A DNA stretch of 64,000 nt from Candidatus Caldatribacterium sp. (GTDB taxonomy: Bacteria; Atribacterota; Atribacteria; Atribacterales; Caldatribacteriaceae): assembly GCF_025060675.1 (NCBI RefSeq), contig NZ_JANXBI010000036.1. One strand, given 5' to 3'. The position numbers and the translations under genes were made by a program. The stretch's first letter is position 1; every line of letters begins with the position of its first letter. A model generated the notes under the pieces. That model made no database searches and had not been told where the DNA came from. It saw only the letters and a list, made by a program, of their open reading frames with translations. Below, one piece after another: positions 26,836 through 50,021 of this stretch.

Positions 26836-26887
26836 GCTTGAGGTTTTTGGGTTATCATGGGAAAACTCTTTCTTTGGAGGGACGAAA

Positions 26888-27109: not shown

Positions 27110-27348
27110 GAGAGGTCAGCGCAGTTTCTCTCCCCGAGTGCCCTCAGGAGTTCTGGAAGCTGTTGTGCTTTTCCCTTGGAATCCTGAGGGTGTTTTCTCC
27201 TGGAAGAGCGGAGCCCTGGACATTTTTAACTGAAGTACGTAATTGAGAGGTACCCTTCCTTCACAGGATTTTCTAAAAAGAGTTATGGATTTCCCCCAGC
27301 ACCTCTGGTACAATTGGAGAGGAAACCGGCGGAGAGGGAGGGCTCAGA

Positions 27349-27990: not shown

Positions 27991-28010
27991 AGGGGCGGAT
28001 GCCCCTTTTT
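27991..28010 (+). terminator. Rho-independent terminator after the corrinoid protein gene
   Basis: The hairpin ggggc-ggat-gcccc is followed by T6. Confidence 0.7.
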
Positions 28011-28077
28011 TCTCTTCCCTTACTTAAAAAAATGAATTATGCTCTAATTCACAGAGCTATTTTGGAGGGGGAGAAGA

Positions 28078-29772
28078 ATGCTCACCGACCTTGAAATCGC
28101 CCAGAGTGCCCACTTAAAGCCCATTACGGAAATTGCTAAAGACCTTGGTCTTGGTGAGGACGATATCGAGCTGTATGGGAAGTACAAGGCGAAAGTATCG
28201 CTTCAAGTGCTTGACAAGCTCAAGAATCGACCACTTGGCAAGTACATTGATGTTACTGCTATCACTCCTACGCCCCTTGGAGAGGGGAAAACGGTCACCA
28301 CTATTGGCCTCTCCATGGCCCTCAACCGAATCGGGAAAAAGAGCATCGTCTGCATTCGCCAGCCATCTCTTGGGCCGGTGTTTGGCATCAAAGGTGGCGC
28401 GGCAGGAGGTGGGTACGCTCAAGTCGTCCCCATGGAAGATTTCAACCTCCATCTCACCGGGGATACCCACGCGGTGGCCTTGGCCCACAACCTCCTTGCG
28501 GCGTTCATCGATAACCACCTCTACCATGGGAATGCCCTCCGCATCGACCCTTTCACCATCAGCTGGCCACGGGTTGTGGACGTGAGTGACCGGGCGCTCC
28601 GGAAGATTATCATCGGACTTGGGGGAAAGGAGAACGGCATCCCTCGAGAATCAGGCTTTGATATTGCGGTAGCTTCGGAGGTTATGGCGATTCTTGCCCT
28701 CACCACGGGCATGAGGGATTTGCGGGAGCGCCTCGGCCGGATTGTTATTGGATACAACGTGGAGAAAAAGCCGGTAACAGCCGAGGACTTGCGATGTGCT
28801 GGGGCCATGGCGGTGCTTTTGAAAGATGCGATCAAGCCGAATCTCCTCCAGACCCTTGAGAATACCCCTTGCTTTGTCCACACAGGACCCTTTGCCAACA
28901 TTGCCCATGGGAACAGTTCCATTCTTGCCGACTACATTGCCCTCCGCCTCAGCGAGTATGTGGTGACTGAAAGTGGCTTTGGTGCCGACTGTGGCATGGA
29001 GAAGTTCATGAACATCAAATGCCGCTACAGTGGCCTTACCCCTGACTGCGTGGTCATGGTGTGCTCGGTTCGGGCCCTAAAAATGCACAGCGGCAAGTAC
29101 AAGGTGGTGCCTGGGAAACCCCTTGACCCAGCCTTGCAGGAAGAGGATGTCGCTGCGGTGGAGCAAGGCGCAGAAAACCTTGTGAAACAGATAGAGAACG
29201 CTCGCCTTTTTGGGGTACCTGTTGTGGTGGCCGTGAACCTCTTCACCACCGATACCGACCGGGAAATCCGGGCGATTGAGCGAATTGCCCTCGACAGTGG
29301 GGCATACGCCTGTGTCGTCTCGGAGGTGTGGGCAAAGGGAGGCGAAGGGGGACGAGAGCTCGCTGAGGCAGTGGTCCGTGCTTGTGAGGAACCTAAGCAT
29401 TTCCGTTTCCTCTACCCCCTTGACATCCCGATAAAAGAGAAGATTGCAATCATTGCGACCCAAATCTATGGGGCTGATGGTGTGGTGTATGATGAAGGTG
29501 TGGAGGAGAAAATAAAGCGTTTCACCGAGTTCGGTTGGGGGAACCTCCCCATCTGTATGGCGAAAACCCACCTTTCCCTCTCCCACGACCCAAAGCTCAA
29601 AGGACGACCTCGAGGGTTCAAGCTCCCTGTAAAGGACATTCGCCCAGCCATTGGAGCAGGGTTCCTCTATCCGCTTTGCGGGGAAATCCGTACCATGCCT
29701 GGGTTGCCTTCAGAGCCTGCAGGGAATAAGGTGGATATCGATGCAGAAGGACGGATTGTGGGGCTTTTCTGA
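28078..29772 (+). CDS. fhs: Formate--tetrahydrofolate ligase
   Basis: TPTPLGEGKTTTTIGL-type P-loop (here TPTPLGEGKTVTTIGL), GIKGGAAGGGYAQV and HGPFANIAHG. 564 aa. Confidence 0.95.
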   Translation: MLTDLEIAQSAHLKPITEIAKDLGLGEDDIELYGKYKAKVSLQVLDKLKNRPLGKYIDVTAITPTPLGEGKTVTTIGLSMALNRIGKKSIVCIRQPSLGPVFGIKGGAAGGGYAQVVPMEDFNLHLTGDTHAVALAHNLLAAFIDNHLYHGNALRIDPFTISWPRVVDVSDRALRKIIIGLGGKENGIPRESGFDIAVASEVMAILALTTGMRDLRERLGRIVIGYNVEKKPVTAEDLRCAGAMAVLLKDAIKPNLLQTLENTPCFVHTGPFANIAHGNSSILADYIALRLSEYVVTESGFGADCGMEKFMNIKCRYSGLTPDCVVMVCSVRALKMHSGKYKVVPGKPLDPALQEEDVAAVEQGAENLVKQIENARLFGVPVVVAVNLFTTDTDREIRAIERIALDSGAYACVVSEVWAKGGEGGRELAEAVVRACEEPKHFRFLYPLDIPIKEKIAIIATQIYGADGVVYDEGVEEKIKRFTEFGWGNLPICMAKTHLSLSHDPKLKGRPRGFKLPVKDIRPAIGAGFLYPLCGEIRTMPGLPSEPAGNKVDIDAEGRIVGLF

Positions 29773-30773
29773 TGGAAAGTGTTGATGTCCTCGTGGTTGG
29801 CGGAGGGGTGGCAGGACTTGCCGTAGCCTCCGCCCTCTGGGAAAAGTACAACGTCGTGCTCCTTGAGGAAAAAGAGTCCTTGGGAGGCCTGGCGCAAGAG
29901 CTCTCTTGTAAGGCAACGGACCGGTGCCTCCGCTGTGGGGTGTGTCGAGCGGTGCATCTTTTGCGGAAAGCTGCTTTCGGTGTGCGTAGCATTCTGGGAG
30001 AACCCCTGAAGGCTGTGGTTTGGGAAAAGAAGGGTTTTCACGTCGCAACGCCTCGCCACGAGTTCCTTGCTCGCTCTATTGTCCTTGCAACTGGGGCGGT
30101 TCCCTTTCCGGTGGAGCGACTCCCTCAATACCTCCGGGGGAGGAAACGGCGCATTTTCACCGGCTTTGAGCTTGAGAAAAAGCTCAAAAGCACCACTCTT
30201 GATGAGCTTGCCGCTTTTTCGTCCTTTGCCTTCGTACAGTGTGTTGGGTCCCGGAATGCGAGGGAAAAGCGAGGGTACTGCTCTCAGGTGTGTTGCCGTT
30301 ACGCATTGCGGCTCATCGAGAATCTCCGCTTTCGACTGCCCCATGCCTTGTTCCATGTCTACTTCATGGACCTCCAGATTCTTGGCGATGGCGAGAATGA
30401 CCTCCGCACCACCGCATCTTCGGTATCTCTGTATCGCTTGATGCCCTCTGCGCTTGCGGAGGATTCCTCGGGGGTCACCGTTACCGTTGAGGCGGATGGA
30501 AAGGTGACCAAGCGGCGTTACGATGCGGTGGTGCTTTCAGTTGGTCTTGTGCCTTCTCCTGGGACGGAACGCGTGGCTGAATTCTTCCGTCTTTCGCGGA
30601 AAGATGGGGGGTTTCTTGTCCCCCGCCCCGAAGACGGCGTTTTCGCCTGTGGCACAGCCACAGGACCAAAGGATATCCTTGGCACCATTTCCGAGGCTGA
30701 AAGGGTTGTGAGTGACCTTGTGGGGTTCCTTGGGGGATCATACCGTGGTTTGGGTGTGCCTGCTCTGTCCTGA
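29772..30773 (+). CDS. Short HdrA-like FAD/Fe-S oxidoreductase (single thioredoxin-reductase-like unit)
   Basis: VLVVGGGVAGLA (FAD GxGxxG), a Cys cluster (CKATDRCLRCGVC), the HdrA signature FVQCVGSRNAREKRGYCSQVCC, and the C-terminal FAD motif VFACGTATGPKDI. The ATG overlaps the fhs stop (TGATG). Confidence 0.7.
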   Translation: MESVDVLVVGGGVAGLAVASALWEKYNVVLLEEKESLGGLAQELSCKATDRCLRCGVCRAVHLLRKAAFGVRSILGEPLKAVVWEKKGFHVATPRHEFLARSIVLATGAVPFPVERLPQYLRGRKRRIFTGFELEKKLKSTTLDELAAFSSFAFVQCVGSRNAREKRGYCSQVCCRYALRLIENLRFRLPHALFHVYFMDLQILGDGENDLRTTASSVSLYRLMPSALAEDSSGVTVTVEADGKVTKRRYDAVVLSVGLVPSPGTERVAEFFRLSRKDGGFLVPRPEDGVFACGTATGPKDILGTISEAERVVSDLVGFLGGSYRGLGVPALS

Positions 30774-32088
30774 TGGTGTGAGCCCACCGGCGTGGGTGAC
30801 TGAAGAGCTCAGAACGTGCGGTTTTTCCTTTGAGGTCGCTTCCTTGTCGCAGCCGAAAGCTCTTCCACCTGCGTCCCTCTTTGTGGTCCTTGGGAACTCC
30901 CTGTGGACGGAGGATGAGGGTACTGCACTTGCCGTGCAGCTTGGTGTGAACCCTCTTGCCGTTTTCGTTTTCCCCTATGATGAGGTGTGTCCGCTTCCTG
31001 ACGCAAAACGCCGGATGCTTTGGCGGAGCTTTCTTGCTTCTCTTGCCCCTCCCACAAGGACCGTTATTCCTTTTCCGGTCATCCCGACTCGGAGGGTCCT
31101 CCTCTATCCTGAGGATCATGGTGTGCTCCGCGAAGCCTTAGCCCGGGTGGATATTCCTGTGGTCTTTTTCCCCTCCTTTACCCTTGTCCGGAGAGGGGTA
31201 GACTTCTACGTGAGGCCGTACGATGTCTTCGTTGGGGCTTGCATCCTCATTCCTTCCTTCCGGGAAGAACCACCTCTTCCCATTCCCCAAGAGGTCCTGG
31301 AAACGAGGAGGGTGGTTGACCTTGTCCACCTTCCCCAGGTTCTTGGGATTTCTCCGGTACGGCGGAAACGCCTCGTTGTCCTTGTCCCTGCCCCGCATCC
31401 GTATCCGGAAGACTGGGAGAGGATTTTTGCCCTTATGTCCCTACCCGCTCAAGGAATGGAGGTTGTGGTCCTTGCGGAAGACATTTTCGTCGCCCGTGAG
31501 GGGTTTGAGGAGGCTTTCCGGAAGGCCCGGGAAAGCGGGGTCATCTTCGAGAAGCTCTCCCTTTCCCGCGTCACCCTCTCACCAAGTCCGGATATGCGTC
31601 GCATCATCGTCCAATACGTTCCGGAGAACGATCCTATCCCGGTGCGTCTTGAGGCCCATTTCCTTGTCCCGGTGGCGCGGAAAACCCTTACTCTCCCACC
31701 CTTTGAGACAGTCTTCATGAGTGACCGAGAGGTTTCCCTTGAGATTCCTGAGAATCCCCAGTTCCCACCCTGTGCCACAAACATCCCTGGGGTTTTTGTC
31801 GCCCGAGGTGACGTTGCCGACCTTGTGGCGGCTGTTACCTCTTACCTCAGGGAGAAGAGGGTGGCTGGAGAAGGACGGGTGGTAGTTGACACAGACCGTT
31901 GCGCCTTGTGTTTGACGTGCCTTCGGAGCTGTCCTGTGGGGGCGATTGTCCTCTCTGGGGAGCTCAAGCGGTGCATCGCGGTGAATGCGGCGCTCTGCGT
32001 GCGATGTGGCGTTTGTGCTGGGCTTTGTCCGGCAAAAGCTTTGCGCTTTGAGGTGGTCCGTGGTGTCCTTGGGCATTATCGGTTGTGA
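30712..32088 (+). CDS. Degenerate HdrA-like protein (no GxGxxG) with C-terminal 2x[4Fe-4S] ferredoxin domain
   Basis: It is co-linear with residues of about 925-1473 of the large Hdr fusion downstream: VVWVCLLCPDG matches IGVFVCRCGVNI, and GVNPLAVFVF matches GLNPYLFAMA. However, the FAD motif and the CVGSR...CC cluster are absent. The C-terminus carries CALCLTCLRSCP and CVRCGVCAGLCP. The start is uncertain (GTG at 30712 or downstream). Confidence 0.5.
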   Translation: MTLWGSLGDHTVVWVCLLCPDGVSPPAWVTEELRTCGFSFEVASLSQPKALPPASLFVVLGNSLWTEDEGTALAVQLGVNPLAVFVFPYDEVCPLPDAKRRMLWRSFLASLAPPTRTVIPFPVIPTRRVLLYPEDHGVLREALARVDIPVVFFPSFTLVRRGVDFYVRPYDVFVGACILIPSFREEPPLPIPQEVLETRRVVDLVHLPQVLGISPVRRKRLVVLVPAPHPYPEDWERIFALMSLPAQGMEVVVLAEDIFVAREGFEEAFRKARESGVIFEKLSLSRVTLSPSPDMRRIIVQYVPENDPIPVRLEAHFLVPVARKTLTLPPFETVFMSDREVSLEIPENPQFPPCATNIPGVFVARGDVADLVAAVTSYLREKRVAGEGRVVVDTDRCALCLTCLRSCPVGAIVLSGELKRCIAVNAALCVRCGVCAGLCPAKALRFEVVRGVLGHYRL

Positions 32089-32410
32089 GCGGAGTGGGTT
32101 CCCAGCGCTCTGTGTCCTGGGAAAGGAGAACCCAGAAGTCTGGGAGGGTATTGTTGCGGCTATTCCTGTTCCTTGTCTTGGAGGGGTCGAGGAGGAGATG
32201 ATGCTTGAAGTGCTCCTCCGATGCGATCGGTTGCTCCTTGTGGGTTGTCCTCCCTTGAGTTGCCGGGGGGTGCAGGGGAGCGTCCTTGCGGAGAAACGGG
32301 TGGCACGGGTATCCCAGCTCCTTGCGGAAGCTGGGATACCTAAAGAGGTCCAGTGTGTTTTCGCTCACGTGCATCGCCTGGGAGAACTCAAAGCGAGGGT
32401 CCTTGCGTGA
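32060..32410 (+). CDS. Divergent MvhD/FlpD-like small Fe-S protein
   Basis: IIGCERSG...PVPCLGGV...LVGCPPLSCRG is co-linear with the canonical copy at 38817 (FLCHWCSY...RVPCSGSV...VSGCHPGDCHY). The GTG starts at 32060/32063 are preceded by gaggtgg. Confidence 0.5.
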   Translation: MVSLGIIGCERSGFPALCVLGKENPEVWEGIVAAIPVPCLGGVEEEMMLEVLLRCDRLLLVGCPPLSCRGVQGSVLAEKRVARVSQLLAEAGIPKEVQCVFAHVHRLGELKARVLA

Positions 32411-33057
32411 TTGTTGGAGAACGGAAACCCCTCAAGGAGGTTCTTGAGCTCCTTTCCCCCCACCGGAAGGTTCTCGTTGTGGGTTGTGGGGCGTGTGTGA
32501 CGGTGTGTCTTGCGGGGGGTGAGCGGGAAGCCCGGGAACTTGCGCTGCTTCTGCGGCTTAAGGGTTTTGAGACTGAGGCAACATCGGTTGAGCGGCAATG
32601 TGAGCGGGAGTTCCTTGTGCCCCTCCGGGAGAGCATCCGTACTTTCTCTGCAGTGCTTTCTCTCGCCTGTGGCGTGGGGGTACAGGTGGTAAGCGATACC
32701 GTCCCAGAGGTTCCCGTTTTTCCTGGCCTCAACACGAGTTTCATGGGTGCGCCTCTTGCTGTGGGAGTCTTTGAAGAGCGATGCATTGGGTGCGGCGAGT
32801 GCATCGTGCATCGTTTTGGGAATATCTGTCCGGTGGCCCGGTGTGCGAAAAGCCTCCTCAACGGTCCCTGCGGAGGGTCAAGAGGTGGAAAGTGTGAGGT
32901 TCGACCTGAACGGGATTGCGCGTGGCAACTCATTTACGAGCGGATGCGAGCCCTTGGAAGGGTTGAGGAACTCTTCGCCATTCAGCCTCCCAAGAATTGG
33001 GCACCTTCTCGCTTTGGGGCTCAAAGGAGGGTTGTGCGGGAGGATGTTCGGCAATGA
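32407..33057 (+). CDS. metV: MetV (methylenetetrahydrofolate reductase C-terminal-domain Fe-S/Zn protein)
   Basis: VVGCGACVTVCLAGGE...CIGCGECIV...CPVARCAKSLLNGPCGGS is typical of acetogen MetV. It has a GTGA start/stop overlap with the preceding gene. Confidence 0.8.
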   Translation: MIVGERKPLKEVLELLSPHRKVLVVGCGACVTVCLAGGEREARELALLLRLKGFETEATSVERQCEREFLVPLRESIRTFSAVLSLACGVGVQVVSDTVPEVPVFPGLNTSFMGAPLAVGVFEERCIGCGECIVHRFGNICPVARCAKSLLNGPCGGSRGGKCEVRPERDCAWQLIYERMRALGRVEELFAIQPPKNWAPSRFGAQRRVVREDVRQ

Positions 33058-33980
33058 GCGTGCTCCAAGAGCTCCTCAAGCAAGGGGTCTTTGTGGTGAC
33101 CGCTGAGGTTGGTCCCCCAAAAGGGGTGGACCAAGAGGGTTTTCGGAAGAAGTGTGCCCAAGTGAAGGGATACGTGGATGCGGTGAATGTCACGGATAAC
33201 CAGACAGCGGTTGTGCGCCTCTCTAGCTTTGCCAGTTGCCTTATTGTGCGCACCATGGGTCTTGAGCCGGTTATGCAGCTTGCCTGTCGAGACAGGAATC
33301 GTATCGCGTTGCAGAGTGACTTCCTTGGAGCCTGTGCGCTGGGGATTGAGAACTTCCTCTGCATTACGGGTGACCACCAAAGCCTTGGGAACCATCCTGA
33401 CGCGAAGAGCGTATTCGACATCGACTCAATACAGCTCCTCTCTATCTTCCGGAGACTCCGGGATGAAGGGATTTTGGCCAATGGGGAGAAGGTGAGGGGA
33501 GACATTCGGGCATTCCTTGGAGCCGGGGAAAATCCCTTTGCCGATCCCCTGGAGTTTCGTGTTTTCCGTTTGGCCAAGAAGGTGGAAGCAGGAGCCCAAT
33601 TCATCCAAACGCAGGCCGTCTTCGACCTTGAGGTGTTCTCTCGATGGATGGAGGAGGTTCGCCGCCTCAAACTCCATGAGAGGGTCCATATCCTTGCGGG
33701 GGTTATTCCGCTAAAGTCTCTACAGGCGCTCCGCTACATGAAGGAAGAGGTGCCGGGAATGGTCATCCCGCGTTGGGTTGAAGAGCGGATGGAGCGCGCT
33801 CAGGATCCGAAGGAAGAAGGGGTACGGATTGCCGTTGAGATTATCGAGGCGCTCCGCAAAATGGAAGGAGTGCGGGGGGTGCACATTATGGCGGTGGCGT
33901 GGGAGAGCATCGTTCCTGAAATTGTCCAACAATCAGGCCTTTTCCCCCGTCCGGCACAGGGGGTGGTTGAGGGTGTATGA
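33054..33980 (+). CDS. metF: 5,10-methylenetetrahydrofolate reductase
   Basis: VTAEVGPPKG, VNVTDNQ, CRDRNRIALQSD, ITGD and the TIM-barrel MetF pattern. It has an ATGA overlap with metV. Confidence 0.9.
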   Translation: MSVLQELLKQGVFVVTAEVGPPKGVDQEGFRKKCAQVKGYVDAVNVTDNQTAVVRLSSFASCLIVRTMGLEPVMQLACRDRNRIALQSDFLGACALGIENFLCITGDHQSLGNHPDAKSVFDIDSIQLLSIFRRLRDEGILANGEKVRGDIRAFLGAGENPFADPLEFRVFRLAKKVEAGAQFIQTQAVFDLEVFSRWMEEVRRLKLHERVHILAGVIPLKSLQALRYMKEEVPGMVIPRWVEERMERAQDPKEEGVRIAVEIIEALRKMEGVRGVHIMAVAWESIVPEIVQQSGLFPRPAQGVVEGV

Positions 33981-34431
33981 TGCCGCTTTCCGATACGAGG
34001 TTGCCCATCGTCCGGGAGGAGAGGGACTTTTCCTCTGCTTTTCCTGCGGGGTATGTACAGCGACCTGTCCGGTAGCCGAGGTGGATGAGGATTTCAATCC
34101 TCGTCGAATCATCCACAGCGTCCTCCTTGGGGATCGGAGCGTTCTCTCCTCTCGGAGTATTTGGATGTGTGCCGCCTGTTTTCGCTGTGTTGCCCATTGC
34201 CCTCAGGGAGTGGAGTTCGCCAACGTTCTCCAGGTTCTTCGAGAGATGGCTGTTGCAGAGGGTCATGTTCCGGAGGAAGTCCGACGGATCATCGAACACC
34301 TTGATGCCCGAACCCAGAAGCTTCGTCGGGACTTCATCGCGCTCCTCTTTGAGAGGAGGGCGTTCTCGTTTCCAGAGTATGAAGACCTCTGGAAGCGTTA
34401 CTTAGGAGGGGGAACGCATGGAACGTCGTAA
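33973..34431 (+). CDS. HdrC-like 2x[4Fe-4S] protein
   Basis: Two CxxCxxCxxxCP motifs (CFSCGVCTATCP and CAACFRCVAHCP) are spaced as in heterodisulfide reductase subunit C. The GTG at 33973 overlaps the metF stop. Confidence 0.7.
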   Translation: MYDAAFRYEVAHRPGGEGLFLCFSCGVCTATCPVAEVDEDFNPRRIIHSVLLGDRSVLSSRSIWMCAACFRCVAHCPQGVEFANVLQVLREMAVAEGHVPEEVRRIIEHLDARTQKLRRDFIALLFERRAFSFPEYEDLWKRYLGGGTHGTS

Positions 34432-37400
34432 CCCCCTTGGAACGGTGCTTGTTGTCGGTGGTGGTATCGCAGGTATTGAGGCAGCCTTGGACCTTGCTGA
34501 GGCAGGATTTTTCGTGCACCTCGTTGAGAAGTCCTCAAGCATTGGAGGTCTCATGGCGCGCTTAGATAAGACCTTTCCCACGAACGATTGCGCCATGTGT
34601 ATCCTCTCGCCAAAGCTCGTTGAGTGTGGCCGCCACCTCAACATTGCCGTGCATACCCTTTCGGAGGTTGTGGATGTCTCAGGAGAGCCAGGGCATTTTG
34701 TGGTTACCATCCTTGAGAACCCTCGCTACGTTGATGTTGCCTCCTGCACCGGGTGTGGGGACTGTGCGAGCGTCTGCCCAGTGGATGTGCCAAACGACTT
34801 TGAAGGGGGACTGAGCCTTCGGAAGGCGGTCTTCCGCCTCTTCCCCCAGGCATTCCCTGGGGCATTCCAGATTCACAAAAAGGGGGTACCAAACTGCCAA
34901 GCGGCTTGTCCCCTCGAGCAAAAAGCCCAGGGGTACATTGCCCTTCTCCGACAAGGGCGCTTTGCGGAAGCCGTGCAGGTCGTGCGGATGGATAACCCCT
35001 TTCCAGGTATTTGTGGCCGAGCATGCCACCATCCCTGCATGGACCAATGCCAAAGGGGTATGTTCGATGCTCCTCTCCGCATCCCCTTCCTCAAACGGTT
35101 TCTCGCCGATTGGGAACGGAACTCTGGAAAGGTCCTGCTTCCTCAAATCCGAGGGGAACGCCCAGAACGGGTTGCTGTTGTTGGTGCAGGACCAAGCGGC
35201 TTAAGTTGCGCATACTTCCTGCGTCTTCTCGGGTACCGTGTGGTGGTTTTCGAAGCACAGAACCAGCCTGGGGGGATGATGCGCTTTGGGATTCCTCCGT
35301 ACCGTCTCCCCCGAGAAGTTGTGGAATGGGAAATTGCTGCCTTAGAGCAACTTGGTGTAGAGATTCGCTGTGGGACCAGCTGGGGAAGGGATTTCACGCT
35401 TGCTGACCTCTTTGCCTGGGGATACTCTGCGGTGTACCTTGCCTGTGGGGCCTGGAAGGGGGCAAAGCTCGGTGTTGAGGGAGAAGACCATCCTCAGGTC
35501 ATCGATGGTCTGGCGTATCTTCTAAGCTGTTCCCGTTGCGAAGATGTCCCCAAAGCCGAACGGATTGCCGTTATCGGTGGTGGCAATGTGGCCATTGACT
35601 GTGCCCGTACTGCCCTCCGCCAAGGGGCGAAAGAGGTCACCATCTACTACCGTCGTTCTTTCGATGAGATGCCAGCTCGCCCGGAGGAAGTTGAAGAGGC
35701 CAGAGAGGAGGGTGTAGAGTTCGTTTTCTGTGCGGCGCCAAAGCGCTTCATCGAGAGGGATGGACGGCTCTTCTTGGAGATGCTTGGTGTCCGACTCTGT
35801 GCTCCTGACGAATCTGGGAGGCGACGGCCTGAGGTTGTCCCAGGAAGTGAGTTCACCGTCTCAGCGGACCTCTACATCGTGGCCACGGGACAAAAGATTG
35901 CCATCCCCAAGGATGAAGGGCTTGAGCTCACCCCTTGGGGGACGGTCAGAGTTGACCGAAACCTTGCAACTTCAATACCTCGGGTGTTCGCTGGCGGAGA
36001 TCTCGTCCTTGGGCCGGCAACCCTTGTTGAGGCTATTGCCCACGGGAAGAGAGCTGCCTACGCCATCGATGCTCTTTTCCGTGGTCAATCCTTTGGGGAG
36101 GACCCCCGTTCGCCTGCGCCCCTTGCGCTCCCTTGGGGCACCGCAAGGAATCCTGGGGAGCAACCTCGAAGACTTGAAGTCGCGAAGCGTCTTTTGGGAT
36201 TCTCCGAGGTCGTCTCTGGGTACACCGAGGAGGAGGCACGAAAAGAAGCTGCAAGGTGTCTCTCCTGTGGAGGATGCGCAGAGTGCCTGCGGTGCGTGGA
36301 GGCATGTCAGAGAGGCGCCATACGCCACGGGGACGAGCCTCGTCTTCGCCAGCTTGAGGTTGGAGCAATCATCTACGCTCAGGGGACTGAGGTGTTGCGT
36401 CCCAAGGAAGTGCTCCGGGAACTTGGTCTTGGACGGTGCCCCAATGTCATTACGAGTCTGGATTTTGAACGGATTCTCAATGCCTCCGGACCCACGAAGG
36501 GGCAGGTTGTTCGGCCCTCGGATGGCAAAGTCCCTCGCAGGATTGCCTTTGTCCAGTGCGTGGGATCCCGTGATGTGAAACGCGGTCACTCCTACTGTTC
36601 CTCGGTGTGCTGCATGTACGCTATCAAAGAGGCACTCGTTGCCCAAGAGCATCTCCGTGTGGAGGGGGACAGTGCTCCTTTTGAGGTCACCGTATTCCTC
36701 ATCGACATGCGTGCCTTTGGGAAAGATTTCGAGCGGTACTATGAGCGAGCGAAAGCGCAGGGGATTCGCTTTGTCCGAGGGCGGGTGAGTCATGTCCTCC
36801 CACAGGAGAACGGCGATGTTGTGGTGTTCTCCGTTGATGAGGGAGGGAACAAAAGGAGCGAGGTTTACGACCTTGTGGTGCTCTCTGTGGGGCTTTGTGT
36901 CCCTGAGGAAGAGCGAAAACGCCTCAGGGAATTGGGGATTCCCCTTGACCCGGAGGGCTTTCCGTACACTGCCGCCTTCGGGACGCGGATGGTACGGCCT
37001 GGGATTTTCGTGTGCGGGAGCCTTGCCGGTCCCAAGGACATCCCAGGAACGGTGGTTGAAGCAGGTGCTGTTGCTTGTGAAGTAGGGGCATTGCTTGCGC
37101 CATCCCGTCGGCAGCATGTTCGGGAGAAAACGTACCCGAAAGAACGAGAGGTGCGTTCTGAGCCGCTGCGCATTGGGGTTTTCGTGTGTCGCTGCGGAGT
37201 GAACATTGCTGGAGTTGTGGACACTGGAGCAGTTGCGGCTTGGGCAAGGGAACTCCCTGGGGTGGTGTACGTTGAGGAGAATCTCTACACCTGTTCTCAG
37301 GACACGCAGGAACGGATAAAGGAAAAGATAGCCGAATACCGCCTCAATCGAGTGGTCGTTGCCTCCTGTTCCCCACGGACCCATGAACCCCTTTTCCGAG

Positions 37401-38839
37401 AAACCTTGCGGGAAGCGGGTCTCAATCCGTACCTTTTTGCTATGGCCAACATCCGTGACCAGTGCTCCTGGGTCCACCAGGGGGAGAAGGAGGAGGCCAC
37501 CGAAAAGGCAAAAGACCTCGTGGCCATGGCGGTGGCTCGGGCCGCCCTTCTTGAGCCCCTCACGCCTTTTCCCGTTCCCGTCGAGAAGGCGGTGCTTGTT
37601 GTTGGTGGAGGTCTTGCGGGAATGACGGCGGCTCTTGAAGCAGCGCGGCAGGGACTCTCTGTGTACCTTGTGGAACGGGAAAAGGACCTTGGTGGGCAGG
37701 ACCTTGCGTACACCCTTGAGGGGGTCCATCTTGCCAAGCTTCGGGAAGAGCTCAAAAAGGATATCGCGGCCCGCCCAAGCATTCAGGTGTTTACCGAGGC
37801 GAAACTCCTTGAGGTCAGTGGTTTTGTGGGGAATTTCGAAAGCCTCGTGGAGCAGCGGGGAACTCTCCATACCCTCAAGCACGGAGGGATTATCGTTGCT
37901 ACGGGTGGGAGAGAGTACCGTCCCGAAAGAGGAGTCTTCCTCTACGGAGAAGACCCGAGAGTCCTCACCCAGAGGGAGCTTGAACGGAGGATGCACCAAG
38001 GGAACTTCATACCCCCAAAACGGGTGGTCATGGTTCAGTGTGTCGGCTCTCGCAACGCGGCGCATCCGTACTGTAGCCGCGTCTGCTGCGTACAGGCGGT
38101 TAAAAACGCCCTGCGTCTTAAAGAGATTGCAAAGGATACGGAGATTGTGGTGCTCTACCAGGATATGCGAACCTATGGGCTGCATGAGCGGTACTACCAG
38201 GAGGCCAGAGCAAAGGGAGTATTCTTTGTGCGGTTTGGGGATGGGACAACGCCTGTGGTGGAAAAGCAGGGTGAGGATCTCCTGGTGCGGTTCTTTGACC
38301 CGCTCCTTGGAGCGGTAGTGGTAATACCTGCGGATTTTGTCGTTTTGAGTACCGGCGTCGTTCCCCAAGAGGACGCTCCAGCGCTTTCGAAACTCCTCAA
38401 AGTCCCTCTCACCCAGGATGGGTTTTTCCTTGAGGCCCATGTGAAACTTCGCCCGGTGGACTTTGCCACTGAAGGTATCTACGTCTGTGGGCTGGCCCAT
38501 GGTCCGAAACTCGCTGAGGAGAGCATTCTGCAAGCAAAGGCCGCCGTTGCCCGTCTCATGACGGTGTTGAGCAAAGACACCATACTCTCCGAGGCGCAAA
38601 TCGCCGCCGTGGATGAGAGGAAATGCGTCGCCTGTGGGGACTGCGAGCGGGTGTGCCAGTACCGGGCCATCCAGGTGGATTGGGGTAAACGGACTGCGCA
38701 GGTCAATCGAGCGTTGTGCAAGGGATGTGGCTTGTGCAGCGCCACCTGTCGGAGTGGAGCGGTGCAACTTTGTGGTTTCACGAAGGACGCGATTCTTGCC
38801 GAGGTGGAATACCTCTATGAGTGTTCCCTGGGAACCTAA
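34418..38839 (+). CDS. HdrL-type giant fusion: HdrA unit with inserted GltD/NfnB-like NAD(P)H module, plus a second HdrA unit and a ferredoxin domain
   Basis: 1473 aa.
- First HdrA unit: VVGGGIAGIEAA, then TFPTNDCAMCILSPK.
- GltD-like insertion at about nt 34890-36080: NPFPGICGRACHHPCMDQC, VAVVGAGPSGL, VIGGGNVAIDCA, FAGGD.
- First unit resumes: FVQCVGSRDVKRGHSYCSSVCC.
- Second unit from about nt 37620: VVGGGLAGMTAA, MVQCVGSRNAAHPYCSRVCC.
- C-terminus: CVACGDCERVC and CKGCGLCSATC.
- Start: ATG at 34418, preceded by taggaggggg. Confidence 0.85.
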   Translation: MERRNPLGTVLVVGGGIAGIEAALDLAEAGFFVHLVEKSSSIGGLMARLDKTFPTNDCAMCILSPKLVECGRHLNIAVHTLSEVVDVSGEPGHFVVTILENPRYVDVASCTGCGDCASVCPVDVPNDFEGGLSLRKAVFRLFPQAFPGAFQIHKKGVPNCQAACPLEQKAQGYIALLRQGRFAEAVQVVRMDNPFPGICGRACHHPCMDQCQRGMFDAPLRIPFLKRFLADWERNSGKVLLPQIRGERPERVAVVGAGPSGLSCAYFLRLLGYRVVVFEAQNQPGGMMRFGIPPYRLPREVVEWEIAALEQLGVEIRCGTSWGRDFTLADLFAWGYSAVYLACGAWKGAKLGVEGEDHPQVIDGLAYLLSCSRCEDVPKAERIAVIGGGNVAIDCARTALRQGAKEVTIYYRRSFDEMPARPEEVEEAREEGVEFVFCAAPKRFIERDGRLFLEMLGVRLCAPDESGRRRPEVVPGSEFTVSADLYIVATGQKIAIPKDEGLELTPWGTVRVDRNLATSIPRVFAGGDLVLGPATLVEAIAHGKRAAYAIDALFRGQSFGEDPRSPAPLALPWGTARNPGEQPRRLEVAKRLLGFSEVVSGYTEEEARKEAARCLSCGGCAECLRCVEACQRGAIRHGDEPRLRQLEVGAIIYAQGTEVLRPKEVLRELGLGRCPNVITSLDFERILNASGPTKGQVVRPSDGKVPRRIAFVQCVGSRDVKRGHSYCSSVCCMYAIKEALVAQEHLRVEGDSAPFEVTVFLIDMRAFGKDFERYYERAKAQGIRFVRGRVSHVLPQENGDVVVFSVDEGGNKRSEVYDLVVLSVGLCVPEEERKRLRELGIPLDPEGFPYTAAFGTRMVRPGIFVCGSLAGPKDIPGTVVEAGAVACEVGALLAPSRRQHVREKTYPKEREVRSEPLRIGVFVCRCGVNIAGVVDTGAVAAWARELPGVVYVEENLYTCSQDTQERIKEKIAEYRLNRVVVASCSPRTHEPLFRETLREAGLNPYLFAMANIRDQCSWVHQGEKEEATEKAKDLVAMAVARAALLEPLTPFPVPVEKAVLVVGGGLAGMTAALEAARQGLSVYLVEREKDLGGQDLAYTLEGVHLAKLREELKKDIAARPSIQVFTEAKLLEVSGFVGNFESLVEQRGTLHTLKHGGIIVATGGREYRPERGVFLYGEDPRVLTQRELERRMHQGNFIPPKRVVMVQCVGSRNAAHPYCSRVCCVQAVKNALRLKEIAKDTEIVVLYQDMRTYGLHERYYQEARAKGVFFVRFGDGTTPVVEKQGEDLLVRFFDPLLGAVVVIPADFVVLSTGVVPQEDAPALSKLLKVPLTQDGFFLEAHVKLRPVDFATEGIYVCGLAHGPKLAEESILQAKAAVARLMTVLSKDTILSEAQIAAVDERKCVACGDCERVCQYRAIQVDWGKRTAQVNRALCKGCGLCSATCRSGAVQLCGFTKDAILAEVEYLYECSLGT

Positions 38840-39251
38840 AATCGTTGCCTTTCTCTGCCACTGGTGTAGTTACGCGGGGGCGGATCTTGCTGGGGTGAGC
38901 CGGATGCAGTACCCTCCGAATATCCGGGTCATTCGAGTCCCGTGCTCAGGGAGCGTTGACCCTCTCTCCATTCTCAAGGCACTCCGAGACGGAGCTGATG
39001 GGGTGCTCGTCTCAGGATGTCATCCGGGAGACTGCCACTACCTGAGCGGGAATTACTTTGCTCGGCGGAAGTTCCTCGTGTTGCATGAGCTTTTTAGGTT
39101 CCTCGGCCTTGAAGGGCGAGTGCACTTTTCCTGGATTTCGGCCTCAGAGGGGCAACGTTTCGCCGAAGTGGTGGATGCTGTTGTTGAGGCGGTTCGGGGT
39201 CTCGGTCCGAATCCCCTGGTGAGGGAGTGGAGGTCTCATGACGCTCCGTGA
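38817..39251 (+). CDS. mvhD: MvhD/FlxD-type [2Fe-2S] protein (methyl-viologen-reducing hydrogenase delta subunit family)
   Basis: KIVAFLCHWCSYAGADLAGVSRMQYPPNIRVIRVPCSGSVDP...GADGVLVSGCHPGDCHY is a near-consensus MvhD sequence. Confidence 0.9.
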   Translation: MSVPWEPKIVAFLCHWCSYAGADLAGVSRMQYPPNIRVIRVPCSGSVDPLSILKALRDGADGVLVSGCHPGDCHYLSGNYFARRKFLVLHELFRFLGLEGRVHFSWISASEGQRFAEVVDAVVEAVRGLGPNPLVREWRSHDAP

Positions 39252-40161
39252 GGTTGCTCGAAAGCTCCTTGAGGAAGGGACTGTTCAGGCCGTCTTGGGG
39301 TATCGGCAAGGATCGTTGCCCTTTCGTGTTCGCCCTTCTCTTTTCCGGAGCCCCGAAGATGTGAGAGAACTCATCTTCACCCCTTTCTGTGGGGTGAATC
39401 TGGCAAAGTACCTTTTCCACCTTCCCCAAAAGGGTGAGAGGGTGGCCATCGTCGCCAAAGGGTGTGATGGTCGCTCCCTTGTGGTCCTCATGCAAGAGCA
39501 CCAGGTTCGGCGGGAGGACCTCTACATCCTTGGGGTACGCTGTCCGGGAATGGTGGACTGGAGGAAGCTCTCCGAAACGTGGAAGGACCTGAAGGAGCAG
39601 GAGGTGTGCTTTGAGGGGGAGAGGCTTATTGTGCGAGGAACTGCGTACCCTCTTTCGTCTTTCCTTGAGGCATCGTGCAAGCGATGTCGCTATCGGAGCC
39701 CCCTTGTGTACGACGTGCTTTTGGGTGAGGAACCCCCTCCTTTCCCCTTTGTGGATACTTTGCGTGAGCTTTGGCAGCTCCTTCCCGAGAAGCGGTGGGC
39801 ATTCTTCGCCCAAGAATTCTCTCGTTGCATTCGTTGCTACGCCTGTCGGAATGCCTGCCCGATGTGTTACTGCAAGGAGTGCTTTGCCGAAAGCCACAGG
39901 CCCTTTTTCCTCCATCCCTCTCCGACGCTTCGAGATACGTTCGTGTTCCACCTGGGTCGGGCCATGCACCTTGCGGGGAGATGCGTCGGTTGTGGTGCCT
40001 GTGAGCGTGCTTGTCCTTTGAGAATACCTATCGCCACGCTCTTTTTCGCCGTCTCGGAGACAGTGCGAGAAGCGTTTGCCTTTGAGGCTGGGGTGGATAC
40101 CACGGCTTCAGCACCCTTTGTGACCTACCGGGAGGATGATCCTGATGCGTTTATCCGGTGA
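39238..40161 (+). CDS. Fe-S protein, FlxC / FrhB-like
   Basis: CIRCYACRNACPMCYCKEC and CVGCGACERACP match the CxxCxxCxxxCPxCxC pattern shared with the AsrA/HydB/Flx Fe-S subunits. The exact family assignment is uncertain. Confidence 0.55.
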   Translation: MTLREVARKLLEEGTVQAVLGYRQGSLPFRVRPSLFRSPEDVRELIFTPFCGVNLAKYLFHLPQKGERVAIVAKGCDGRSLVVLMQEHQVRREDLYILGVRCPGMVDWRKLSETWKDLKEQEVCFEGERLIVRGTAYPLSSFLEASCKRCRYRSPLVYDVLLGEEPPPFPFVDTLRELWQLLPEKRWAFFAQEFSRCIRCYACRNACPMCYCKECFAESHRPFFLHPSPTLRDTFVFHLGRAMHLAGRCVGCGACERACPLRIPIATLFFAVSETVREAFAFEAGVDTTASAPFVTYREDDPDAFIR

Positions 40162-41101
40162 AGGTCGTGTCGTATCGTATGAGGCATTCCTCAAGTGGTT
40201 CGAAGGGAAAAAGGTTTTCGTGACAGAAACGGTTCATAGCCGTTTCCCCCTTCCTTTCCCCTCTCTTCCCACCCCCAAGAGTCTCCTCCTCCCCCAGAGG
40301 GAGGTATTGTACCGCTTTTTCTGGGCAAAGAGGACATGGAACATCCTCTCCCTCCCCCCCTCCTCAGAGGAGGTCTTCTTGCTCTGTGCTCCCTGTGAGG
40401 CAAGAGCCGTGGTTGAAGTCCTTGATACGGTCTTTCTCCAGAGTGCTCCCACGGATACCTCGTATGCGGAAAGGCGCAAGAACCTCACCCTTGTGGTTGT
40501 GGGATGCACCTTCTTTGCAGCCACCTGTTTCTGCACGAACGTTGGTGGGCATCCCCTCTCTTGGAAGGGGGCGAAGGGTTTCGCCCTCCCCTTTGCGTTT
40601 TTGGTGTACCTAGAAGGAGAGGGACCAGAAGGTCGGCCTCTAGAGCCTCAAGAGGAGCAAGAGCTTGAGATGCTCGTCGAACGCCTGGAGCACGATGCCC
40701 TGCCACCCCTTCCTGAGGAGACGCCTGAACGCCTCTTGAGGGCTTTTGAAGGGGCTGCCTGGGAGGAGGTCACCTGGGGGTGCTTGAACTGTGGGGCCTG
40801 TACGTTTCTCTGCCCGACGTGCTTTTGCTTTGACCTTGTGCCAGAGGGAAAGCTCCGTGGGGCAATGGTTCGGACCTGGGACAGCTGCATGTTCCCAAAG
40901 TTTACCCTCCATGCCTCTTCCCATAACCCAAGACCCCATCCGATGCAGCGGGTTCGCCAGAGAATCCTCCACAAGTTCTCGTATTTCCCCCTTCGGAAAG
41001 GGGTGTTTGGTTGCGTAGGATGTGGGCGATGTGCGCTCCTTTGTCCGGTCAACTGGGACATCCAGGAGGCTTTAGGGAAGGTGATGTCCAGTGCGCCATG
41101 A
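40136..41101 (+). CDS. Fe-S protein, sulfhydrogenase beta (HydB/ShyB) / AsrA / FlxB-like
   Basis: CLNCGACTFLCPTCFCFD...WDSCMF...CVGCGRCALLCP is typical of the anaerobic sulfite reductase A / sulfhydrogenase beta family. Confidence 0.7.
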   Translation: MILMRLSGEGRVVSYEAFLKWFEGKKVFVTETVHSRFPLPFPSLPTPKSLLLPQREVLYRFFWAKRTWNILSLPPSSEEVFLLCAPCEARAVVEVLDTVFLQSAPTDTSYAERRKNLTLVVVGCTFFAATCFCTNVGGHPLSWKGAKGFALPFAFLVYLEGEGPEGRPLEPQEEQELEMLVERLEHDALPPLPEETPERLLRAFEGAAWEEVTWGCLNCGACTFLCPTCFCFDLVPEGKLRGAMVRTWDSCMFPKFTLHASSHNPRPHPMQRVRQRILHKFSYFPLRKGVFGCVGCGRCALLCPVNWDIQEALGKVMSSAP

Positions 41102-41918
41102 AGGGATTTACACTCCTTGCCTTCTCCCCATAGAGGAGATTCTTGAGGAGACCCCTGACATTAAGACGTTTCGGGTTCGCCGCCCAGAGGGCTTTGCCTA
41201 CCTCCCAGGGCAGTTTGTGGCGATTTTCGTGCCTGGGGTTGGAGAAGCGCCCTTTTCCATTGCTTCGTCACCGACGGAGGAGAGATTCCTTGAGTTCAGC
41301 GTGAAGCGCTTGGGTTCAGTCACAAGCGCCCTCCATCGCCTCAACCCTGGAGATGTCGTTGGTCTTCGAGGGCCTTACGGCAATGGGTTCCCCCTTGGAG
41401 CATTGATTGGGAAAAACCTCCTCTTTGTGGGTGGGGGCATTGGTCTTGCGCCACTGCGCTCTCTCATTACCTATGTCCTCTCCCCGGAACACCGACCATC
41501 TTTCGGAGAAGTGTACATTCTCTATGGGGCCCGCACGCCGCAAGACCTTGTTTTCCGGTGGGAACTTTCTCACTGGGAGAGGCGAAACGACCTCACCCTT
41601 TGCCTCACCGTTGATGAGGGGGATGCCACCTGGAGCGGCAGGGTGGGGCTTGTGCCCAACGTGCTTCGAGAGGTCTTCTCCTTCCCCAGCGACAACTGGG
41701 TGAGTATTGTCTGTGGCCCCCCGATTATGATAAAGTTTACCATCAAAGCACTTCGGGAAATGGGTTTCATGGCTAGAAACGTCCTCACAACCCTTGAGAT
41801 GAAAATGAAGTGCGGCCTTGGTAAGTGTGGACGATGCAACATCGGTCCGTACTACGTGTGTCATGATGGGCCGGTGTTCTCGTACGAGATGCTTCTGACA
41901 ATGCCTGAGGAGTACTGA
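41091..41918 (+). CDS. FAD/NAD(P)H oxidoreductase with C-terminal [2Fe-2S], sulfhydrogenase gamma (HydG/ShyC) / AsrB / FlxA / PyrK-like
   Basis: It has an FNR-like fold (GQFVAIFVPGVGEAPFSI, FVGGGIGLAPL) and a C-terminal CGLGKCGRCNIG...VCHDGPVF. It uses a GTG start overlapping the upstream stop. Confidence 0.8.
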   Translation: MRHEGIYTPCLLPIEEILEETPDIKTFRVRRPEGFAYLPGQFVAIFVPGVGEAPFSIASSPTEERFLEFSVKRLGSVTSALHRLNPGDVVGLRGPYGNGFPLGALIGKNLLFVGGGIGLAPLRSLITYVLSPEHRPSFGEVYILYGARTPQDLVFRWELSHWERRNDLTLCLTVDEGDATWSGRVGLVPNVLREVFSFPSDNWVSIVCGPPIMIKFTIKALREMGFMARNVLTTLEMKMKCGLGKCGRCNIGPYYVCHDGPVFSYEMLLTMPEEY

Positions 41919-49964: not shown

Positions 49965-50021
49965 CCCTCCTCATTCCTTTCCTCCATTGTACCCAAGGAC
50001 AGGGGTCCTGAGAAGGAGATG

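Follow-up and report, generated by a model that had tools for sequence, protein, structure and literature searches.

A Caldatribacterium folate gene cluster encodes an HdrL-type iron–sulfur flavoprotein with a circularly permuted NfnB/GltD-like insert

The open reading frame (ORF) hdrL, at 34418..38839 of the 64-kb window analysed here (the whole stretch of 64,000 nucleotides from contig NZ_JANXBI010000036.1), encodes a 161-kDa HdrL-type iron–sulfur (Fe-S) flavoprotein of a Caldatribacterium-like (Atribacterota) hot-spring bacterium. The protein belongs to a known, widespread and biochemically uncharacterised family, the HdrL proteins, and alignment and modelling make it nearly certain that its architecture as a whole is that of a pseudo-heterodimer whose two HdrA units diverged long ago, the first of them being split by a module related to NfnB and GltD. 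Encoded within a folate gene cluster, the hdrL product probably links nicotinamide adenine dinucleotide phosphate, NADP(H), to the reduction of methylene-tetrahydrofolate (methylene-THF).

The frame begins with ATG, 5 nt downstream of a Shine-Dalgarno-like sequence (GGAGGGGG), and its translation runs through 1473 codons without an internal stop to a lone terminal TAA. A preliminary description of this DNA had posited a single uninterrupted protein of that length that needs neither stop nor selenocysteine (Sec) recoding, and both points hold: the frame reads through with cysteine, 34000-39400 is covered by contigs from four hot-spring metagenome runs of three studies (2014-2021), which show substitutions only and no indels, and length is conserved among homologues. 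All the sequencing runs with matching contigs were of DNA; a search for expression turned up none of RNA. The closest relative, at 99 % identity and with 12 substitutions, is likewise 1473 aa long, and 118 of the best 120 clusters at 90 % identity are full-length proteins of 1456-1697 aa, the remaining two being marked partial. In all, more than 100 full-length homologues of some 1460-1500 aa are spread over many phyla. A frameshift, Sec or assembly artefact behind the large ORF is thus ruled out by the conserved length and by the four indel-free assemblies. Three apparent joints in one run (X2) were considered as deletions and rejected, being supported by only 22-36 nt on one side, in short contigs; because they coincide with the highly conserved stretch 37442-37477, which draws the loose ends of other contigs, we treated them as cross-matches of paralogous hdrA genes. 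An antisense ORF of 931 aa (35972-38767, minus strand) lies opposite hdrL; we found no evidence for its being a gene, and it is most likely a by-product of sense-strand codon bias.

All 14 peptides quoted in the preliminary description occur in the product, in the order given there. The N-terminal HdrA peptides VVGGGIAGIEAA and TFPTNDCAMCILSPK occupy residues 12-23 and 52-66; NPFPGICGRACHHPCMDQC (193-211), VAVVGAGPSGL (252-262), VIGGGNVAIDCA (385-396) and FAGGD (524-528) follow in the insert; FVQC...VCC (711-732) and IFVCGSLAGPKDI (863-875) lie in the second part of unit 1; and unit 2 holds first the cysteine-rich peptides VFVCRCGVNI (921-930), ASCSPR (982-987) and RDQCSW (1013-1018) and then the FAD-domain (flavin adenine dinucleotide) peptides VVGGGLAGMTAA (1061-1072), MVQC...VCC (1205-1224) and IYVCGLAHGPK (1354-1364). 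Every domain is conserved among the best 120 clusters, with median identities per domain of 45-71 %, and across 119 aligned homologues all proposed Fe-S ligand cysteines are invariant, as are Cys58, Cys61 and Lys737, with Lys1229 kept in 108. The nearest named relatives come from metagenome-assembled genomes (MAGs) of Candidatus Caldatribacterium (79 % identity) and Caldatribacteriaceae (70 %). The highest 19-residue Kyte-Doolittle mean, 2.13 at residues 1297-1315, falls in a stretch whose aligned counterpart in soluble HdrA is a beta-strand region.

Pfam and NCBIfam models place HdrA-type matches in four stretches of the protein, and these fall into register with the crystal structure of HdrA (5ODC_A, E 3e-183). 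Residues 10-154 align to HdrA 146-290, which comprises the FAD fold, the Cys194/Cys197 pair (Cys58/Cys61 here) and the first half of the inserted ferredoxin domain; residues 620-803 align to 293-471, comprising the second half of that domain and the thioredoxin reductase (TrxR)-type domain with its CX12CX3CC cluster and Lys409 (Lys737 here); residues 916-1065 align to 3-152, the N-terminal Fe-S domain (171 bits); and residues 1287-1467 align to 468-650, the end of the TrxR-type domain together with the ferredoxin domain at the C-terminus. The segment VFVCRCGVNI...RDQCSW, previously taken to resemble the HdrA inserted domain, is therefore the N-terminal domain of unit 2 (residues 916-1050, aligned to 5ODC 3-152), and this domain is the most conserved block of the whole family (median identity 71 %). 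Two CxxCxxCxxxC motifs, starting at residues 1403 and 1434, are indeed present at the C-terminus; the ferredoxin domain that they had been taken to add is no extra module but the ordinary C-terminal domain of unit 2. Nor is that second unit intact, as had been supposed: the alignment to the unit 1 core and to HdrA reveals no counterpart of TFPTNDCxxC, the motif of the Cys194/Cys197 pair, and no inserted ferredoxin domain in unit 2. The expectation of at least four dinucleotide-binding folds was correct, with GGGIAG at residue 14, GAGPSG at 256, GGGNVA at 387 and GGGLAG at 1063.

What each unit lacks, the other supplies. Unit 1 retains the FAD/TrxR domain with its [4Fe-4S] cluster, Cys58/Cys61, Lys737 and the inserted ferredoxin domain and has neither an N- nor a C-terminal domain; unit 2, whose core (1051-1390) is 32 % identical to that of unit 1, has the N-terminal Fe-S domain, an FAD domain that includes Lys1229 and a cluster of its own, and a C-terminal domain with two [4Fe-4S] clusters. 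Because these losses are complementary, the chain reads as a fused pseudo-heterodimer. In methanogen HdrA, Cys197 of the partner protomer provides one ligand of the N-domain cluster, which makes the dimer obligate; in HdrL, Cys61 of unit 1 could ligate the N-domain cluster of unit 2 within a single chain. The four domains that make up one methanogen-type HdrA are here divided over two units, of which unit 1 carries the equivalents of Cys194, Cys197 and Lys409. Although the NCBIfam HdrA2 and HdrA models head the list of matches, all score below their cutoffs (954 against 1100, 687 against 1300 and 685 against 1400), and these scores, the division of the domains between units and the absence of HdrB from the window together argue that the present protein is not a bona fide HdrA.

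The insert, in which the preliminary description had seen about 400 aa of glutamate synthase small subunit/NfnB type, spans some 465 aa (residues 155-619), and its Fe-S motif, two dinucleotide folds and FAGGD are all present, although the Fe-S domain is circularly permuted relative to NfnB and GltD. It lies between HdrA residues 290 and 293, so placed that the inserted ferredoxin domain of unit 1 has one cluster motif on either side of it, and since the HdrA alignment resumes directly across it, it replaces nothing. Pfam Fer4_20 (158-236) and Pyr_redox_2 (251-543) match within it, as does NCBIfam PRK12771 (residues 153-647, 519 bits against a cutoff of 516), so that HdrA-type, GltD/NfnB-type and Fer4 models were all returned by the profile scan that had been proposed for the domain boundaries. 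Among structures in the PDB it matches 9BOV_A (E 4e-114, with 469 residues colinear, among them the terminal RCLxCG), 8OH5_C, 9N5U_A, 5JCA_L and 4YLF_B. With phmmer, the N-terminal segment of NfnB/NfnI-L (residues 15-42, ...EEA..EA.RCLxC) aligns to the end of the insert (residues 590-617), and the remainder of NfnB aligns from HdrL residue 160 on. Placing residues 580-619 ahead of 158-245 lifted the Fer4_20 score to 99.7 bits, from 64.2, and widened the profile coverage from positions 30-111 to 5-111, profile positions 5-29 corresponding to residues 595-619, which lie behind the flavin domains. The alignment and the rise in score together imply that the module is entered behind the first CxxC of its Fe-S domain and closes with that CxxC; with its Fe-S domain permuted in this way, the insert is not a canonical NfnB or GltD. 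As a consequence of the permutation, both ends of the module meet at one cluster: the invariant C160/C164 and C614/C617, which with C199, C203, C207 and C211 make up the Fe-S-domain cysteines of the insert, most probably form a single [4Fe-4S] at the insertion's neck, and C617 stands three residues ahead of C620, the first ligand of the next HdrA ferredoxin cluster. Bfu-type NfnA has the same permuted, colinear layout in its NfnL-like middle domain (9BOV_A, 9N5U_A), as does StnC (8OH5_C). For HdrL as a whole, 3 FAD and about 9 [4Fe-4S] (roughly 36 Fe) would be expected.

GAGPSG, GGGNVA and the 2'-phosphate motif YRR (Tyr411-Arg412-Arg413) are invariant in the 119 homologues, and a YRR[ST]xxEM motif is common to 9BOV_A, 5JCA_L, 4YLF_B and the insert (YRRS..EMPA). 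All the solved structures closest to the insert belong to subunits of Nfn or Stn transhydrogenases, enzymes linked to NADP(H) (PMC11829005), and 5JCA is an NADP(H)-bound NfnI entry. From this match to NADP(H)-binding relatives and from the invariance within the family, we infer that the insert binds NADP(H), most likely at the place where an ordinary HdrA reduces ferredoxin.

AlphaFold models of two segments agree with these assignments. The model of residues 1-1200 (predicted local distance difference test score, pLDDT, 85.6; predicted template modelling score, pTM, 0.77) matched NfnI-L, NfnB and GltD in Foldseek searches at target-normalised template modelling (TM) scores of 0.78-0.80 (0.79-0.80 for NfnI-L and NfnB) and HdrA cores at 0.86-0.92, in alignments that span the insert, with 8RWN_A and 8RVU_a reaching target-normalised scores of 0.91-0.92 to unit 1 across it. 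The structural comparison suggested in the preliminary description thus recovered both the HdrA and the Nfn fold, and the fusion that it had proposed, an HdrL type with a GltD/NfnB-like module splitting an HdrA, is borne out by profile matches, PDB alignments and models alike. The model of residues 906-1473 (pLDDT 84.1) aligns to full-length HdrA 5ODH_A with a TM score of 0.87 when query-normalised and 0.76 when target-normalised, at 37 % identity; as modelled, this segment is an HdrA without the inserted ferredoxin domain.

The name HdrL dates from 2009 and was given to a fusion of HdrA and glutamate synthase in Desulfobacterium autotrophicum HRM2, with mvhD following it (Strittmatter et al.; PMC2702500), and the window protein has the same HdrA-homologous regions, GltD-like NAD(P)H module and mvhD directly downstream. 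By their descriptions, HdrL1-3 (PMC2702500) and Sfum_0824 of Syntrophobacter fumaroxidans (PMC5947623), the latter detected by proteomics (PMC5947623), are large fusions described as soluble, likewise with an NAD(P)H module and with mvhD directly behind the gene, and MAGs that bear the labels Desulfobacterium sp. and Syntrophobacterales encode full-length homologues at 46-49 % identity, with mvhD downstream. The S. fumaroxidans protein is abundant with sulfate. Selenocysteine is present in two of the D. autotrophicum proteins (PMC2702500), whereas the window protein has cysteine throughout. The D. autotrophicum and S. fumaroxidans proteins have been proposed to cycle electrons to sulfite or DsrC; here the gene lies beside metVF, fhs and folC in a lineage of fermenters that do not reduce sulfate.

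Related architectures have been described from archaea and from aromatic degradation. In anaerobic methanotrophic (ANME) archaea, tandem or fused HdrAs show the same complementarity of Cys197 and N-terminal domain and have been proposed to be their own heterodimeric partners, and an NfnB insertion in the ferredoxin domain is also known there (PMC9012536). Measured against these published descriptions, HdrL likewise has two TrxR-type FAD domains with a complementary Cys197 motif and N-terminal domain; in ANME HdrA3/4 (PMC9012536), however, the two complementary units come in the reverse order. In the classification of PMC12054007, fused HdrAs are type II and those with a GltD insertion are type III, for which the insert was proposed to block ferredoxin access. 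ANME-1 HdrA9-11, of type III, carry an insertion of about 500 aa, NfnB/GltD-like and likewise inside the inserted ferredoxin domain, and one of their classes, A9-TRX-C (PMC12054007), has a C-terminal TrxR domain in addition; a role with NAD(P)H has been proposed for type III HdrA and HdrL, and ferredoxin access may be blocked in both. Type III HdrA is known from archaea, is rare (nine sequences) and is regarded as a recent acquisition, whereas the bacterial HdrL family is large and spans many phyla; and NADH was argued for type III from GxGxxG (PMC12054007), whereas the window protein has GxGxxA with YRR, as do NADP(H)-binding relatives. A parallel with the same unit order, comparing by description, is BamE of class II benzoyl-CoA reductase, a fused HdrA dimer solved by cryo-electron microscopy, in which only the TrxR1 FAD (Lys280, Cys59-Cys62) bifurcates and the second FAD (Gln768) is structural (bioRxiv 10.64898/2026.04.10.717634). 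Numbering is nearly equal once the insert is subtracted (Cys58/Cys61; Lys737 - 465 = 272), and BamE too has an MvhD-type adaptor, BamF; BamE, however, has no NfnB-like insert, and in place of its glutamine at the second FAD unit 2 of HdrL keeps Lys1229. For the insert itself, the best matches in both sequence and fold are Bfu-type NfnA (C. saccharolyticus 9BOV/9BP5; T. sibiricus 9N5U) and StnC (S. ovata 8OH5), whose modules contain an NADPH-oxidising FAD and two [4Fe-4S] clusters feeding a longer Fe-S chain. There the module sits in an Fdh/NuoG-like subunit of a bifurcating enzyme of the HydBC type, which uses flavin mononucleotide, whereas here it sits in an HdrA ferredoxin domain; in Bfu-type NfnA and StnC the corresponding FAD takes electrons from NADPH as the last member of the Fe-S chain, and no bifurcation takes place there (PMC11829005).

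Table 1. Genes and protein domains of the hdrL region, in window coordinates.
Feature	Position	Strand	Characteristics
Second, split HdrA-like pair and short FlpD-like ORF	29772..32410	+	separate genes
metV	32353-33057	+	Pfam DUF5981 (MTHFR C-terminal); NCBIfam
metF	33054 (likely ATG) to 33980	+	Pfam MTHFR; NCBIfam; metV + metF = methylene-THF reductase
HdrC-like 2x[4Fe-4S] protein	33922..34431	+	Pfam Fer4_8; HdrC and QmoC models
hdrL-type ORF	34418..38839	+	1473 aa, ~161 kDa
HdrA unit 1, first part (aa 1-154)	34418..34879	+	GGGIAG FAD beta-alpha-beta fold; Cys58/Cys61; first inserted-ferredoxin CxxCxxCxxxC, C110-C120
Circularly permuted NfnB/GltD (NfnL)-like module (aa 155-619)	34880..36274	+	Fe-S domain; FAD fold GAGPSG; putative NADP(H) fold GGGNVA; YRR; FAGGD
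HdrA unit 1, second part (aa 620-905)	36275..37132	+	ferredoxin motif C620-C630; TrxR-like domain; C714/C727/C731/C732; Lys737; GSLAGPKD FAD motif
Unit 2 HdrA N-terminal Fe-S domain (aa 916-1050)	37163..37567	+	C924, C926, C959, C984, C1016
Unit 2 TrxR-like FAD domain (aa 1051-1390)	37568..38587	+	GGGLAG; C1208/C1219/C1223/C1224 cluster; Lys1229; no Cys pair, no inserted ferredoxin domain
HdrA C-terminal ferredoxin domain (aa 1391-1473)	38588..38836	+	two CxxCxxCxxxC; Pfam Fer4_21, Fer4_7
mvhD (FlpD, [2Fe-2S] adaptor)	38817..39251	+	Pfam FlpD 3e-51; VhuD model
Flx-like gene, FrhB_N/Fer4 protein	39238-40161	+	domain matches
Flx-like gene, Fer4_22 AsrA/HydB-like protein	40136-41101	+	domain matches
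Flx-like gene, PyrK/HydG/AsrB-like FAD-NAD(P)H-[2Fe-2S] protein	41091-41918	+	275 aa; domain matches

The neighbourhood of hdrL (Table 1) runs counter to the earlier picture of a self-contained wire: mvhD nearly always follows hdrL, and in the window HdrC-like, MetVF and Flx-like genes surround it as well. The HdrC-like gene, whose start is uncertain (TTG 33922, TTG 33967 or GTG 33973), overlaps the start of hdrL by 14 nt, and mvhD, which probably starts at the ATG at 38817, shares 23 nt with the hdrL 3' end. By their domain composition, the MvhD-like protein, the two Fe-S proteins and the PyrK/HydG-like protein encoded after hdrL probably correspond to FlxD, FlxC, FlxB and FlxA, the last three being the genes at 39238-41918. 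These three supply a second pyridine-nucleotide site in the cluster beside that of the HdrL insert. The 275-aa protein comprises FAD_binding_6, NAD_binding_1 and DHODB_Fe-S_bind, which is also the domain set of NfnA; as a true NfnA it was rejected, scoring 192-226 bits with models of the HydG/AsrB type and just 67 bits with the NfnA-type model PRK06222, whose cutoff is 220. A tblastn search found no HdrB/CCG homologue anywhere in the 64-kb window, and gltB was absent among the scanned neighbours of hdrL. Folate and one-carbon genes flank the Hdr genes on the plus strand at 25585-29772 and 41921-44052: upstream, the set comprises SHMT, a B12-binding corrinoid protein and Fhs (formate-THF ligase, 28078), followed by the split HdrA-like pair, the short FlpD-like ORF, MetV and MetF, and downstream mvhD and the three Flx-like genes are followed by FolC and a pterin-binding (MeTr/DHPS-like) protein. 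This neighbourhood matches the one described for Caldatribacterium in PMC13408713.

How general this arrangement is can be gauged from a scan of species-representative genomes with a 1200-residue query, which gave at least 600 pattern matches, the best 80 loci of which were analysed. All 80 cover the query nearly completely, 79 of 85 loci extend at least as far as residue 1440 of the complete protein, and the groups represented among the best 80 include Atribacterota, Desulfobacterota/Syntrophales, Bacillota, Acidobacteriota, Chloroflexota, Nitrospinaceae, Gemmatimonadota and SAR324, among others. At the 41 related loci with at least 5 kb on each side, MvhD lies near hdrL in 39, an HdrC-like gene in 28, MetV with MetF in 23, at least two Flx-like genes in 15 and HdrB in 13; where enough downstream sequence was available, mvhD starts within 600 nt 3' of hdrL (66 of 74 loci). 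Another Atribacterota genome shows synteny over the entire cluster (60 % identity), a Limnochordia contig has the same gene set in a changed order, the three Flx-like genes keep their order in loci L001 and L003, and on a Desulfotomaculales contig the hdrL set stands beside hdrABC and genes of the acetyl-CoA pathway.

Two known complexes bear comparison with the cluster. According to the summaries in PMC5736913 and PMC7325909, the MetFV-HdrABC-MvhD methylene-THF reductase of Moorella thermoacetica (Mock et al. 2014) is NADH-linked, and its second acceptor is given as unknown; there, as in the window, metV and metF are clustered with HdrA-type and HdrC-type genes and mvhD, whereas here HdrB is absent, an HdrL with a built-in module for NADP(H) replaces HdrA, and Flx-like genes and the split HdrA-like pair are added. 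Set against FlxABCD-HdrABC of Desulfovibrio (Ramos et al. 2015, cited in PMC10553843 and PMC5947623), the window offers no HdrB or DsrC target.

We favour, with moderate confidence, an MvhD-dependent and MetVF-linked bifurcating core with an NADP(H) site. Its proposed course follows how HdrA is known to be wired, which PMC9012536 summarises and BamE shows again. The FAD of unit 1 would be the bifurcating flavin; the high-potential electron would pass from the [4Fe-4S] of unit 1 through the HdrC-like protein to MetVF and methylene-THF, and the low-potential branch would lead from the N-domain cluster across the inserted ferredoxin domain by way of its clusters, continue over the pair of NfnL-type clusters and reach NADP+, not ferredoxin, from the NfnL-type FAD. 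The net, reversible reaction would be 2 NADH + CH2-THF + NADP+ <-> 2 NAD+ + CH3-THF + NADPH, the reverse direction of which would help organisms with a reversed pathway to oxidise methyl-THF; this particular stoichiometry and direction we regard as doubtful.

Several points weigh against this scheme. Its thermodynamics are built on textbook potentials of about -200 mV for methylene-THF and, in vivo, about -280 mV for NADH and -370 mV for NADPH, by which the net reaction would be near thermoneutral and reversible. The nucleotide specificity of the insert is read from motif homology only, and because the N5 lysine is kept in both HdrA units, the sequence is silent on which FAD bifurcates. The second split HdrA-like pair and the second MvhD-like ORF fall outside the scheme. 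Partners of HdrL also vary, since Flx-like genes are present at only about 37 % and MetVF at about 56 % of hdrL loci, with none of them at 5 of the 41. In the literature we found no biochemistry of any HdrL or GltD-inserted HdrA, and PMC12054007 states the same.

The same anatomical evidence also fits an enzyme in which NADPH is the mid-potential donor, its hydride entering the NfnL-like FAD and its electrons passing through the clusters of that module and those of the inserted ferredoxin and N-terminal domains to the HdrA FAD, with methylene-THF (through the HdrC-like protein and MetVF) and ferredoxin (through the C-terminal ferredoxin domain and MvhD, or the second HdrA-like pair) as outputs. 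At about -370 mV, NADPH could drive the reduction of both by bifurcation. This scheme, which takes up the NAD(P)H-to-flavin wire of the preliminary description and the hypothesis that PMC12054007 offers for type III HdrA of archaea, would be the more natural reading at the many hdrL loci that have no Flx-like genes and therefore need another donor, and the homologous module is the NADPH-oxidising entry point in Bfu-type NfnA and StnC (PMC11829005). However, its input would run through what is the low-potential output branch in every solved HdrA-type enzyme (PMC9012536; BamE preprint), a separate Flx-like NAD(P)H dehydrogenase module adjoins mvhD here, on the canonical input side, and, should the insert occlude it, no exposed ferredoxin-docking domain would be left on unit 1 (PMC12054007). 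We therefore consider an NADPH donor possible but on balance unlikely. Two bifurcation sites in one protein, the NfnB-like FAD bifurcating as in NfnAB with the 275-aa PyrK-like protein docking in the manner of NfnA, would be a version of the Nfn unit grafted onto an Hdr unit that has been speculated for ANME-1 (PMC9012536), and we judge it distinctly improbable. The neighbour does carry the NfnA domain set, and Arg187 of T. maritima NfnB, which hydrogen-bonds the bifurcating flavin (PMC6405883), corresponds to the invariant Arg296 of the insert; but an equivalent arginine is also present in the Bfu-type NfnA/StnC module, so the residue does not discriminate, and it is to this permuted module, whose FAD does not bifurcate (PMC11829005), that the insert is colinear and most similar. 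The low PRK06222 score of the 275-aa protein, its HydG/AsrB-type matches and its pairing with an AsrA/HydB-like Fer4_22 protein point the same way.

A genuine heterodisulfide reductase subunit, acting on CoM-S-S-CoB or DsrC, would account for HdrA2 and HdrA being the best NCBIfam matches; yet all HdrA equivalog scores stay below cutoff (954/1100; 685/1400), the window has no HdrB/CCG homologue, the neighbourhood is one of folate one-carbon metabolism, and Caldatribacterium isolates are saccharolytic fermenters that depend on co-cultured sulfate reducers without being such themselves (PMC13408713), all of which makes this role very improbable. The chance that separate hdrA, gltD and hdrA genes were artefactually fused by a frameshift or an assembly error is practically negligible: we found nothing in support of it, the four independent assemblies are free of indels, homologues of equal length occur in many phyla, and a GltD module that is both nested inside a domain and permuted cannot arise from a simple joining of genes.

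Should the favoured bifurcating core with its NADP(H) site be correct, one could go further and see in HdrL-MvhD with MetVF (here plus Flx-like proteins) a new class of methylene-THF reductase that has gained NADP(H) as second redox partner through the grafted NfnL-type module, a speculative proposal that we hold to be unlikely. If true, the enzyme would be an MTHFR-coupled, flavin-based bifurcating transhydrogenase, and in syntrophs and complete-oxidising sulfate reducers it could drive a difficult step of the reverse Wood-Ljungdahl pathway, the oxidation of methyl-THF. Proteins of the HdrL type occur widely among anaerobes, and the literature that we found reports the purification of none. 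A second electron partner is being sought for the Hdr-associated methylene-THF reductases, as is a driver of methyl-THF oxidation in the reverse pathway, and the adjacency of metVF at more than half of the examined loci, together with a putative NADP(H) module at the ferredoxin-reducing site of HdrA, provides a concrete and testable candidate answer. As Caldatribacterium has lately been brought into pure culture (PMC13408713), a native source of HdrL exists. The folate gene neighbourhood of Caldatribacterium has already been drawn, labelled 'HDR', according to the legend of Fig. 6D in PMC13408713. Under the name HdrL we found no earlier account in the literature of the circular permutation with its composite C614-C630 motif, of the frequency of the MetVF association or of the co-occurring second split HdrA-like pair; the permutation, the MetVF frequency and the second pair are refinements and not a new kind of system.

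The split HdrA-like set upstream of metV looks like another complementary HdrA heterodimer with an MvhD in the same cluster. Its 333-aa protein has a minimal TrxR-type domain with GGGVAG, C52/C55, a CX12CX3CC motif and Arg180 at the position of HdrA Lys409; the protein of about 437 aa has no GxGxxG and ends in a 2x[4Fe-4S] domain; and the short FlpD-like ORF (Pfam E 1.5e-11) lies within 31985-32410. That the ORFs of 333 and 458 aa might be one hdrA broken by a frameshift or a TGA-encoded Sec was ruled out, since L001, L002 and L003 also have them as distinct genes of comparable size.

Between purH (AICARFT/IMPCHase) and hisS lies a 435-aa ORF (49918-51225, minus strand) with no Pfam match at E <= 1e-6. 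Two adjoining plus-strand ORFs of 282 and 276 aa (44065-44913 and 44917-45747), likewise without a Pfam match, follow the pterin-binding gene as members of the folate neighbourhood, and ORFs of like size and placement are kept in that position in L001 and L002. Just past the folate/Hdr cluster, at 45750-48471 on the minus strand, HydF ([FeFe]-hydrogenase maturase) and a lyase of the fumarase/aspartase family are encoded convergently to it, an arrangement also kept in L001 and L002. In L002 (CP121689.1, a related Atribacterota) an IS110-family transposase on the opposite strand (14899-16092) stands between mvhD and the first Flx-like gene and interrupts an otherwise contiguous cluster. A Planctomycetota locus, L004 (CP070830.1), encodes a 1667-aa variant of the family (P0088) with about 190 additional residues in the GltD-like region; mvhD, metVF and flx are absent there within 8 kb, and an HdrC-like gene lies upstream.

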